This document shows positions 12,001 to 15,000 of a DNA stretch of 47,396 bases, one piece after another (the stretch's first letter is position 1; each line of letters begins with the position of its first letter). The DNA lies in IMG/VR virus record IMGVR_UViG_2684623171_000003; one strand, 5' to 3'. The position numbers are program-made. This DNA is from a virus. Taxonomy: Duplodnaviria; Heunggongvirae; Uroviricota; Caudoviricetes.

Positions 12001-15000
12001 ACTGGCAGACGCTGGAGCTGGTGTTCACCGCCGGCAGTGCCACGGTTACTCCGAAACTGAATGGAGTGGCTGGCCCGGCATTCCAGGTTATAAAAGACAG
12101 TCTGACACTGGGACTGAATGCGCTGACGCTGACGGATGTTACAAAAAATGCAGCGTATGGCGTTGAGATAGAAAGTCTGATGCTGGAGATAAATGCACCG
12201 GCAGCATAATAAAAAAAGCCAGCGACTGACCTGAAAAAGAAGACGCTGGCTAAAAGGCCTTATATGTTTGTAGAGACTTATTTTTCACAGACAGCAATGA
12301 TGCCTGTCAATATATTATCAATATGCGGATTGTTTCAGTTACAGATGCTTTATTAAGGAAAAAAACAGCCAGCACTGACTTTCGGTGGAGAGGTGCTGGC
12401 TCAAAAGGATAGATGTACTTCACATGTTGCTTCTATATGGCAGTACATTTTCTGACAGACAGTGACGGATGTTGTCAAGATATTGTGTCATTTATAACCT
12501 GAATCGGGGGAGGCCGGAATGTTATCTGGCATTTTTAGCAGAGCCTGAATGCCATAATCACGGCTCCCGGCGTTGGCCGTCAGTGGGTGACACTGGCGGC
12601 TTTTTTGTTTTCCTTTACTTTCATTTTCTGTCGGCGGTGACGGAGACATACATCAGATGGAAAAAATCACAACGGGTGTGTCATACACCACGTCAGCGGT
12701 GGGGACGGGATACTGGTTACTGCAGCTGCTGGACAAAGTCTCTCCGTCCCAGTGGGTGGCGATAGGTGTGCTGGGGAGTCTGCTGTTTGGCCTGCTGACG
12801 TATCTGACAAACCTTTATTTCAAGATTAAAGAAGATAAGCGTAAGGCGGCGCGGGGAGAGTAAAGCGATGAAGAAAAAATACGAACTGGTTGTTAAAGGG
12901 ATAAATAATTACCCGGATAAGATTACTGTTACTGTGGCACCGGAAATTGGTGGGTATCCGTCACTGTTGTTGCCAGATGTGGCGATTAGTCTTGACCGTA
13001 CTGAAGGTGCCACGCTGGAGTTTTACGAAGCTGAGGCGAAAAAGCAGGCGAAGCAGTTTTTCATGGATGTTGCTGCCGGGTTATGTGAAGGGGATGGTCC
13101 GTTACCGGAAAAGCGTCCCGTAATTTTAGAGGCGCAGGATGTGTTGATAACCTACAGAGGAAAACTACCGGGAATAATTACGGGTTCTCTGAAGACTCCA
13201 CCGCTGGCCTGAAGACTTAACATATCCAGGGATTTGAAATCGATAAACCCTGATAAATATCCATGAACGCAAAAATCAGATACGGCCTGTCGGCTGCCGT
13301 TCTGGCGCTGATTGGTGCAGGGGCGTCTGCGCCTGAAATCCTCGACCAGTTTCTGGATGAAAAGGAAGGTAACCACACCACAGCATACCGTGATGGTGCG
13401 GGTATCTGGACCATCTGCCGTGGAGCCACCCGGGGGGATGGTAAGCCTGTTATTCCTGGCATGAAGCTGTCGAAGGAAAAATGCGACCGGGTTAACGCCA
13501 TTGAGCGTGATAAGGCGCTGGCATGGGTGGAGAAAAACATCAGAGTGCCGCTGACCGAACCCCAGAAAGCGGGGATCGCGTCATTCTGTCCGTACAACAT
13601 TGGCCCCGGTAAGTGTTTCCCGTCGACGTTTTACAGACGGATTAATGCAGGAGATCGAAAAGGTGCCTGCGAAGCGATTCGCTGGTGGATTAAGGACGGT
13701 GGCAGGGACTGCCGTATTCGCTCAAATAACTGTTACGGTCAGGTATCCCGTCGTGACCAGGAGAGCGCGCTGGCGTGCTGGGGAATCGACAGATAAGCAG
13801 AATATTTTGCTGAAAAATGAGGTTTGCTTACATGGACGGATAACACGAAATCCTGCAAATTGGCAAAATGTAAGTGAATAAAGTCAAAACAGTTGTTTAA
13901 CACTCAGGCACCGTAATGATGCCTTTGTCATTTCTGCGCATCTCACGCGCATCTCACAACACAGAACCTTTCAGGATGACCCTTGAGGATACCGGTTTGG
14001 CTGTCGGTGCCTTTCTGTGGGCTGGATTCCTGTGAGACAAGGTTCATCACTAAAAGGAAATAACCGATGAATATGATGGCCGTGCCGTTTCACGGCAACT
14101 CTCTTTATGTAGTTAACCATAATGGCGAACCATACGTTCCCATGAAACCTGTCGTTGCGGGGATGGGGCTGGCCTGGCAATCACAGTTGGCTAAGTTAAG
14201 ACAGCGTTTTGCGTCAACTATAACGGAAATCGTTATGGTTGCTGAGGATGGGAAACAACGCAATATGGTGTCCATGCCACTTCGAAAACTTGCCGGCTGG
14301 CTACAAACCATTAATCCCAACAAAGTAAAACCCGAAATCCGCGATAAGGTCATCCGGTATCAGGAAGAGTGCGACGATGTTCTTTACGAGTACTGGACGA
14401 AGGGTTTTGTCGTTAATCCCCGTAAAATGAGCGTGATGGAAGAACTCAACCAGGCTTGTGCTGACATGAAACGGGATAAAAACATTGCCAGTGTGTTTGC
14501 TACCGGGCTGAATGAGTGGAAACAGGTTAAAGCCGCGCATGTATCAAAAATCCGTACGCTGGTAAATGAAGCGAATATGCTGATTGATTTTGTCCTGGCT
14601 GATACAGGCAAAGGGAAAATAACAAAGGCGGATTGATGGGGTGGCTAATGATATCAGATAAACTCATAACGCTGGTGAAGAGCCTCTGTGTACTTGTCGG
14701 CATTTCATTTTTAGTCATGCTGGTTGCCATTTTCTTTTCCACCGCCTGGCGAGTCCTGACGTTATCGGGACTGGTGGGGTGAAAGAGAGATGAACCGTGT
14801 TCTGTGTGTGGTGATTATTGTCCTGGCGGTTGGCTATGGTGCGCTGTGGCTGGCAACAAACCATTACCGTGACAACGCGCTCACCTACAAAGCGCAGCGC
14901 GATAAAAAAGCCAGAGAGCTGGAACAGGCGAATGCCACCATTACTGACATGCAGGTGCGCCAGCGTGATGTTGCTGCGCTCGATGCAAAATACTCGAGGG

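Follow-up and report, generated by a model that had tools for sequence, protein, structure and literature searches.

A Holin-Coupled YdfR/DUF1327 Gene Between Holin and Endolysin in a Shiga-Toxin Prophage of Escherichia coli O157:H7

Introduction

What is the role of a small additional gene placed between the holin and the endolysin of a lambdoid lysis cassette? This question is raised by the viral (Caudoviricetes) IMG/VR record IMGVR_UViG_2684623171_000003, a stretch of 47,396 nucleotides (nt), hereafter the window, in which an open reading frame (ORF) of 114 amino acids (aa), here identified as a ydfR gene, separates holin gene S from endolysin gene R. An earlier reading of the window, made without database searches (the sequence-only reading), had found no recognisable motif in the ORF and offered three options for it: (i) a lysis regulator; (ii) an antiholin-like factor; or (iii) late-expressed cargo. 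In the present analysis, the ORF is assigned to a known protein family and its possible functions are weighed. The explanation considered best, to which a probability of roughly 40% is given, is that ydfR is a late accessory gene coupled to the holin gene, and that its soluble product has a host target in the cytoplasm, RNase E and/or RNA being the sole candidate with experimental support.

Identity and Distribution of the Gene

The position of the ORF between holin and endolysin was borne out, with gaps of 4 nt and 50 nt, respectively: the holin stop codon TAA (12861-12863) is followed by AGCG and then by the ydfR ATG at 12868. The features of this interval, including the leader of R, which is poor in Shine-Dalgarno (SD) signal, are as follows:

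12657..12863, + strand: S21-type (class II, pinholin-type) holin gene, 68 aa (PF04971, E 1.2e-32; PHROG holin)
12868..13212, + strand: ydfR-family gene, 114 aa, ATG 12868, TGA 13210-13212 (DUF1327, PF07041)
13213..13262, + strand: spacer of 50 nt between the ydfR stop and the endolysin ATG, SD-poor leader of R
13263..13796, + strand: R21-type lysozyme (endolysin) gene, 177 aa, Ala/Gly-rich N-terminus (PF00959, E 1.5e-24)

The window is an E. coli O157:H7 prophage that carries Shiga-toxin genes. Its S–ydfR–R stretch (1,251 base pairs, bp) is 99.8% identical to that of phage YYZ-2008, a Shiga-toxin prophage of that serotype, and stxAB and a nanS-p-type esterase gene lie 5' of the cassette.

The protein matches the Pfam family PF07041 (DUF1327) with 155.2 bits (E 5.4e-46) over model positions 1-92 of 93, that is, above the gathering threshold of 25 bits and over the whole model. 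It also matches PHROG 406 (E 3.8e-64), and 100%-identical copies are named "YdfR family protein" in RefSeq; the absence of a recognisable motif, as first reported, was therefore a mistake. The family so found is, yet, a poorly characterised one (all five PHROG matches are labelled "unknown function"), and the observation is in consequence deflated rather than refuted. Since the family has long been catalogued and has a namesake in E. coli K-12, the gene must be regarded as already known: it is a YdfR/DUF1327 accessory gene of E. coli lambda-like prophages. Other searches with the window protein gave no family: (i) no NCBIfam model matched; (ii) a PDB profile search returned a single chance-level match (E 0.36); (iii) the best match among the PADLOC defence models was not significant (E 0.021, 12.9 bits); and (iv) no antiholin or lysis-inhibition family, a class with the S21-71 dual-start isoform, T4 RI and RIII, P1 LydB and P2 LysA as members, was matched in Pfam, PHROG or NCBIfam.

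DNA homologous to ydfR is present in 2,924 of 5,426 complete E. coli genomes (54%), in up to eight places per genome. The protein family is nevertheless small and of narrow taxonomic range; among 1.84 billion proteins, it has 256 clusters when grouped at 90% identity and 92 representatives when grouped at 50%. In phages, the gene is carried by 101 of 50,697 records, all of them Escherichia lambdoid phages. The same 101 are found among the 419 phage records that match the S-R cassette, so that about three quarters (~318) have the cassette without ydfR. The original lysis-region record of phage H-19B (AF034975.3), in which only S and R are annotated, contains an unannotated ydfR ORF at 16464-16805 (98.2% identical).

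In a species-level genome set, all YdfR matches belong to Escherichia or Shigella, with the exception of one contig (L007) of a metagenome-assembled genome labelled Veillonella parvula. This locus was rejected as a true Veillonella one: the bin is almost certainly contaminated with E. coli DNA, because the S, YdfR and R matches of the contig have the same coordinates and identities as those of the K-12-type locus L006. Holin-YdfR fusions (P0010, of 184 aa, P0068 and others) were likewise set aside as sequencing or mutational artefacts, each being present in one or very few contigs; in P0010, the 3' end of the holin gene is frameshifted.

A Start Site Coupled to the Holin Gene

The evidence that ydfR is a late gene comes from its start site, for which the relevant signal, read from the sequence, is:

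12853..12860, + strand: SD-like GGGGAGAG within the final holin codons, 7 nt before the ydfR ATG

This motif is likely a translational-coupling signal for whichever gene comes after S. The junction formed by GGAGAGTAA, 4 nt and ATG stands before ydfR in K-12, 2H10 and Evi, and before R in 933W. Among the Escherichia and Shigella loci, ydfR directly follows an S21-type holin gene in 15 of 15, with a lysozyme gene downstream in 14; the distance from the holin stop to the ydfR ATG is 4 nt in 14 of them and 3 nt in PhiR12_1. No promoter- or terminator-like site was found between S and R, the 50-nt spacer included, and no Rfam family matched in this region. Co-expression with the lysis genes, as had been expected in the sequence-only reading, is thus well supported: placed in the translationally coupled slot after S, ydfR should be made whenever the late transcript is translated.

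The comparison with phage 933W is informative in this respect. Its cassette (S-R-ant-Rz/Rz1) is closely related to that of the window, with identities of 94% for S, 97% for R, 100% for Ant and 97% for Rz, and both share the nanS-p esterase gene upstream and the ant-like gene between R and Rz. But 933W lacks ydfR, and the ATG of its R gene stands 4 nt after the S stop, in the slot that ydfR holds in the window. The S21/R21 lysis cassette therefore exists in nature without ydfR. Since the ATG of the slot belongs to R in 933W, ydfR has taken over the holin-coupled initiation site and displaced R. The gene is best explained as a "moron"-type addition to the late operon of this lambdoid Shiga-toxin prophage, seated in the coupled slot after the S21-type holin gene, with R pushed behind its SD-poor leader. 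R itself is 89-97% identical in every compared cassette, whether ydfR is present or absent (96.6% between the window and 933W).

The founding member of the family, YdfR of the K-12 Qin prophage (b1555, P76160), shares with the window the gene order (essQ-ydfR-rrrQ-rzpQ) and the 4 nt after the essQ stop. Nevertheless, K-12 ydfR overlaps the start of rrrQ by 4 nt, while the window has the 50-nt leader instead.

Two observations concern the holin gene and its surroundings. A strong intrinsic-terminator-like hairpin (12575-12611; 11 pairs, then TTTTTGTTTT) lies ~50 nt 5' of it, inside the late operon, and is presumably read through by Q-modified polymerase. At the holin dual start (12645-12662), the window and YYZ-2008 read ATA CAT CAG ATG (I-H-Q-M), where 933W and relatives have ATG TAC CAG ATG (M-Y-Q-M) and K-12/2H10 have ATG AAA TCA ATG (M-K-S-M); with the upstream start missing, the holin of the window can be made only as the 68-aa form. 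The idea that YdfR replaces the missing start was rejected, since all other examined ydfR-carrying phages retain the dual start.

Architecture and Selection of the Protein

Two parts can be distinguished in the YdfR protein of the window:

12868..13089, + strand: conserved DUF1327 core, codons 1-74, predicted beta-beta-beta-alpha (AlphaFold2, BLASTP, alignment)
13090..13209, + strand: tail module "PEKRPVILEAQDVLITYRGKLPGIITGSLKTPP", codons 75-114, Escherichia-specific (aligned part, residues 75-112), conserved in that genus and without counterpart in K-12 YdfR

In the AlphaFold2 model, built on a 30-sequence alignment, the core consists of strands at residues 5-14, 18-27 and 38-43 and a helix at 50-73, with a predicted local distance difference test score (pLDDT) of 72-90; in the tail, pLDDT falls below 50. 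The core motif YEL.VKG ... DR.EG..LEFYE.A is conserved, also in the window protein, and the residues Y5, L7, V9, K10, K18, R44, E46, G47, L50, E51, F52, Y53, E54, A57 and F65 are invariant in the 22-30 aligned members; Y53-E54 is unchanged as far as the Sodalis and Cronobacter homologues. The protein is acidic (isoelectric point, pI, 5.5; core 5.1). Unlike a membrane antiholin, it has no hydrophobic or membrane segment (maximum Kyte-Doolittle mean over 19 residues of 0.89, versus 1.83 for the holin) and is soluble.

Window and K-12 proteins are 46% identical over residues 1-74 (BLASTP), but their C-terminal tails differ ("PEKRPVILEAQ...TPPLA" in the window, "KLSEKVESYLQHQYSFKIENPANKHERPHHKYL" in K-12). 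Allele lengths in the family are 72, 103, 114/116, 169/176/183 and 268/287 aa, C-terminal extensions being optional. The tail module also occurs (EKRPIILEAQ..GKLPGRITGSLKTPP) at the C-terminus of P0155, an unrelated coiled-coil protein of 112 aa that is similar, in its N-terminal part, to the coiled-coil extension at the C-terminus of long YdfR alleles; P0155 therefore has the same modules in the opposite order and lacks the DUF1327 core.

The ORF is conserved as coding in related phages. In pairwise Nei-Gojobori comparisons across YdfR homologues, the ratio of nonsynonymous (dN) to synonymous (dS) substitutions is 0.2-0.45 over the 74 N-terminal codons, with synonymous sites near saturation (dS about 1.5-1.9 and dN about 0.42 between the two main allele types), and 0.1-0.6 over codons 75-112. 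The gene is under purifying selection. Between the window and locus L003, dS is 1.64 in the N-domain and 0.22 in the tail, and ydfR is therefore a recombination mosaic. Its G+C content at third codon positions (GC3) is 0.46, versus 0.64 in S and 0.60 in each of R, Rz and nanS-p.

Stand-alone homologues of 72-76 aa with PF07041 matches were found by profile search; those with a named source come from other Enterobacterales, namely Sodalis ligni and Cronobacter, and the remainder are metagenomic. The contexts of six distant homologues were looked up and five had recognisable neighbours. Four of these five are lambda-like tail modules, with the homologue (i) between M and L; (ii) upstream of L; (iii) between L and K; and (iv) after I. 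In the fifth, the homologue lies ~550 bp upstream of a holin_8/holin_3_7 pair.

A different arrangement is seen in phage phiSTEC1575-Stx2k (L025, 2281-4299). Its S21-type holin carries Leu-to-Pro and Leu-to-Arg changes in the membrane segments, ydfR is intact, and another, complete lysis cassette, made up of two holin-family genes and an M15 peptidase gene, lies 3' of ydfR, which suggests a replacement of the lysis module that retained ydfR.

A Functional Lead from E. coli K-12

For the K-12 protein, one experimental lead has been published. Residues 1-72 of YdfR were recovered three times in a bacterial two-hybrid screen in which the bait was RNase G (Rng), a paralogue of RNase E (PMC13232886, RNA Biology 2026). 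This clone gave a stronger signal with RNase E constructs, the interaction was localised to the N-terminal half of RNase E, residues 1-72 were sufficient for the binding, and RNase E 1-598 and DNase-resistant nucleic acid co-purified with Strep-YdfR (PMC13232886). Few transcripts responded to overexpression of K-12 YdfR, and the authors reported no growth defect (PMC13232886). It is over this very segment, residues 1-74, that the window protein is 46% identical to K-12 YdfR.

YdfR would have its target among the cytoplasmic components of the host, and not in the holin, the endolysin or the spanin; the candidate is RNase E, through its catalytic N-terminal half, and/or RNA. As this is the sole supported candidate, the most likely mode of action is the modulation of RNA processing or decay late in infection, which would resemble, in kind, the action of other phage proteins that target RNase E.

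Phage proteins known to target RNase E include T4 Srd, T7 gp0.7 and phiKZ Dip. If the K-12 result carries over, YdfR of the window would be another small phage RNase E binder, directed, like Srd, at the N-terminal catalytic half. It differs from the three in that ydfR is a late rather than an early gene, and no homology to anything characterised was detected. A more specific version, in which YdfR proteins are holin-coupled modulators of host RNase E that are produced together with the pinholin, bind the RNase E catalytic domain through the conserved beta3-alpha core and alter the processing or decay of the long late transcript, with hypervariable tails that retarget or regulate this activity, is unlikely.

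Several points weigh against the RNase E/RNA explanation. The link comes from one paper, in which the K-12 protein was tagged and overexpressed; Rne 1-597 was the only construct with which full-length T25-YdfR scored; the overexpression altered few transcripts; and a contaminant carrying the RNA could not be excluded by the authors (PMC13232886). The window allele is only 46% identical to K-12 YdfR and has a different tail, and the acidic N-domain (pI 4.6-5.1) is unexpected for a direct RNA binder. Finally, the constant adjacency of the S21-type holin gene to ydfR in Escherichia (15/15 loci) equally fits a holin-specific regulator.

Alternative Explanations

Small soluble regulators of antiholin type are encoded beside the holins of other phages, as in the case of T4 RIII and P1 LydB. 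YdfR of the window is like them in being small, soluble, cytoplasmic and encoded and co-expressed with the holin. It could be a cytoplasmic regulator of lysis timing that binds the C-terminal tail of the S21 pinholin, or the SAR (signal-anchor-release) endolysin before its release, and delays or sharpens triggering. Besides the coupling of ydfR to the S21-type holin at all 15 Escherichia/Shigella loci, this possibility draws on the retention of S and ydfR as a unit in phiSTEC1575-Stx2k despite the replaced endolysin module, on the one distant homologue near another holin pair, and on the lack, in the window holin, of the upstream start that is present in relatives. On the other side, four of the five distant contexts are tail modules, and the loss of the dual start is peculiar to the window and YYZ-2008, while other ydfR-carrying phages keep it. 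In the Stx2k phage, moreover, it is the holin that has the Leu-to-Pro and Leu-to-Arg membrane changes, with ydfR left intact. The ydfR gene is missing in 933W and in about three quarters of related cassettes, its N-domain type and the holin type do not strictly co-vary (L005 and L011 are exceptions), and no PHROG or Pfam lysis-inhibition family was matched. YdfR has no sequence relationship to RIII or LydB, and its homologues are also found outside lysis cassettes. Phage 21, too, is not known to carry ydfR, and YdfR is not known to have a lysis phenotype. The Keio ydfR deletion scored in a screen for envelope leakiness based on chlorophenol red-beta-D-galactopyranoside (CPRG) (PMC3879167 supplement), a phenotype that could be polar, through an effect of the kan cassette on rrrQ, and overexpression of K-12 ydfR had no reported growth defect (PMC13232886). 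Regulation of lysis timing is therefore a doubtful role for ydfR, although the strongest competitor considered here. Most likely, ydfR is a soluble supplement to the late operon and not a component of the lysis apparatus. With respect to the three options offered at the outset, late-expressed cargo fits best, while the evidence (the 933W slot, the ~318 of 419 cassettes without the gene, the homologues in tail modules and the absence of a reported growth phenotype on overexpression) leans against a lysis regulator or antiholin, that is, against a role of ydfR in lysis regulation.

Cargo may also serve the lysogen, and lambda bor and lom and HK97 gp15 (tail region) are morons of lambdoid late operons. 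YdfR could be expressed from the prophage under stress and aid the host in cold adaptation, antibiotic tolerance, superinfection exclusion or defence. The gene is moron-like in several respects: it is small, stands between conserved late genes, has a lower GC3 and shows a patchy distribution with variable flanks, in which convergent small ORFs typical of cargo islands are frequent; it is also intact in 54% of complete E. coli genomes, in up to eight places each, including the defective Qin prophage. But classic morons come with a promoter and a terminator of their own and are active in the lysogen, while ydfR lacks both and makes use of the SD in the holin gene, within the late operon and 3' of the terminator-like hairpin (12575-12601). 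According to the discussion of PMC13232886, expression of the K-12 cluster rises in the cold, and overexpression of ydfR gave a 3-fold higher minimum inhibitory concentration of streptomycin in one screen (PMC12924614). Nevertheless, these phenotypes come from single high-throughput screens, almost no ydfR reads are seen in RNA-seq of growing K-12 (PMC13232886), and the best PADLOC match is not significant (E about 0.02). A benefit to the lysogen is thus unlikely, somewhat more so than a lysis-timing role. Least probable is that ydfR has no function, its ORF being a decaying passenger or hitch-hiker that stays open only to carry translational coupling from S to R. The C-terminal part is indeed extremely variable in length and allele, with many truncated forms and a tail predicted with low confidence, and the gene is dispensable in 933W. 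In any case, a passenger of this kind is hard to reconcile with dN/dS values of 0.2-0.45 even between alleles with saturated synonymous sites, with ~20 residues invariant across Escherichia alleles (and Y53-E54 out to Sodalis and Cronobacter), and with the persistence of the core domain, standing alone, at unrelated genomic positions.

Variability of the Interval Between S and R

The region 3' of the DUF1327 core is hypervariable, with alleles of 72-287 aa and convergent ORFs that come and go. One further feature, read from the sequence, is found here:

13189..13217, + strand: direct repeat of 9 bp (CTGAAGACT), present twice at a distance of 20 bp, across the ydfR stop codon

By blastn, the alleles of 169, 183 and 268 aa differ from the window by a clean indel (480-860 extra bp) that is bounded by CCACCG/ACCG microhomology and adjoins this repeat. 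The C-terminal extension is encoded by this additional DNA, as is, in part of the longer alleles, a convergent small ORF. The 50-nt spacer of the window is 88-91% identical to the sequence directly 5' of R in three long-allele phages (L012, L024 and L026). Depending on the locus, 308 to 1,259 bp separate the start of ydfR from that of R, and YdfR is 41-94% identical at loci where R is 89-96% identical. With a variable distance and a conserved R, the interval between S and R is therefore a recombination hot spot. Pfam gave nothing over threshold for the C-terminal extensions (268-, 287- and 206-aa alleles) or the convergent ORFs, nor did PADLOC give anything significant for the long alleles or the neighbouring convergent ORFs.

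Directly 3' of short (72-aa) DUF1327 genes, a convergent gene for a protein of 98-100 aa, with no Pfam or PADLOC match, was observed in phage Evi and in two metagenomic lineages (L017 and L021/22). Its copies (L011:2744-3040, L017:693-992 and L021:768-1070, all on the - strand) are 59-75% identical to each other, and the protein and the short DUF1327 gene may form a two-gene module. A conserved module of this type was nonetheless rejected: the partner is missing in the window and at the majority of loci, and no relationship links it to the other convergent ORFs.

Other Features of the Locus

The cassette is completed by the spanin genes, both 3' of the ant-like gene:

14790..15257: Rz
15010..15195: Rz1

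The ant-like gene (14067-14636, 189 aa, with P22_AR_N and ORF11CD3 domains) is a second interloper, with R on one side and Rz on the other; it shares 100% identity with "ant" of 933W and has a GC3 of 0.50, below that of the lysis genes. Upstream of the nanS-p esterase gene there are two Rfam matches: (i) STnc100 at 9939-10152 (+ strand, 190.7 bits); and (ii) the anti-GcvB small RNA AgvB at 10153-10212 (- strand, 56.6 bits), barely over the gathering score.

Implications

By itself, the finding of ydfR in the window is routine: RefSeq already annotates the gene, most E. coli lineages carry it, and nothing about it would surprise a phage specialist. But few unexplained genes of lambdoid prophages, those with Shiga toxin included, are as widespread as DUF1327, which is expressed with the lysis genes just 3' of stx and now has one biochemical lead, RNase E. 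If YdfR were a soluble regulator of the pinholin, it would be a new element in the pinholin/SAR-endolysin model of lysis. Under the more specific and unlikely reading of YdfR as a holin-coupled modulator of RNase E, and as the late transcript carries stx, nanS-p and the lysis genes, YdfR would tune both toxin yield and lysis timing indirectly. Should the RNase E lead prove true in the phage context, it would connect the stability of the late transcript, the output of toxin and the timing of lysis in prophages of enterohaemorrhagic E. coli.

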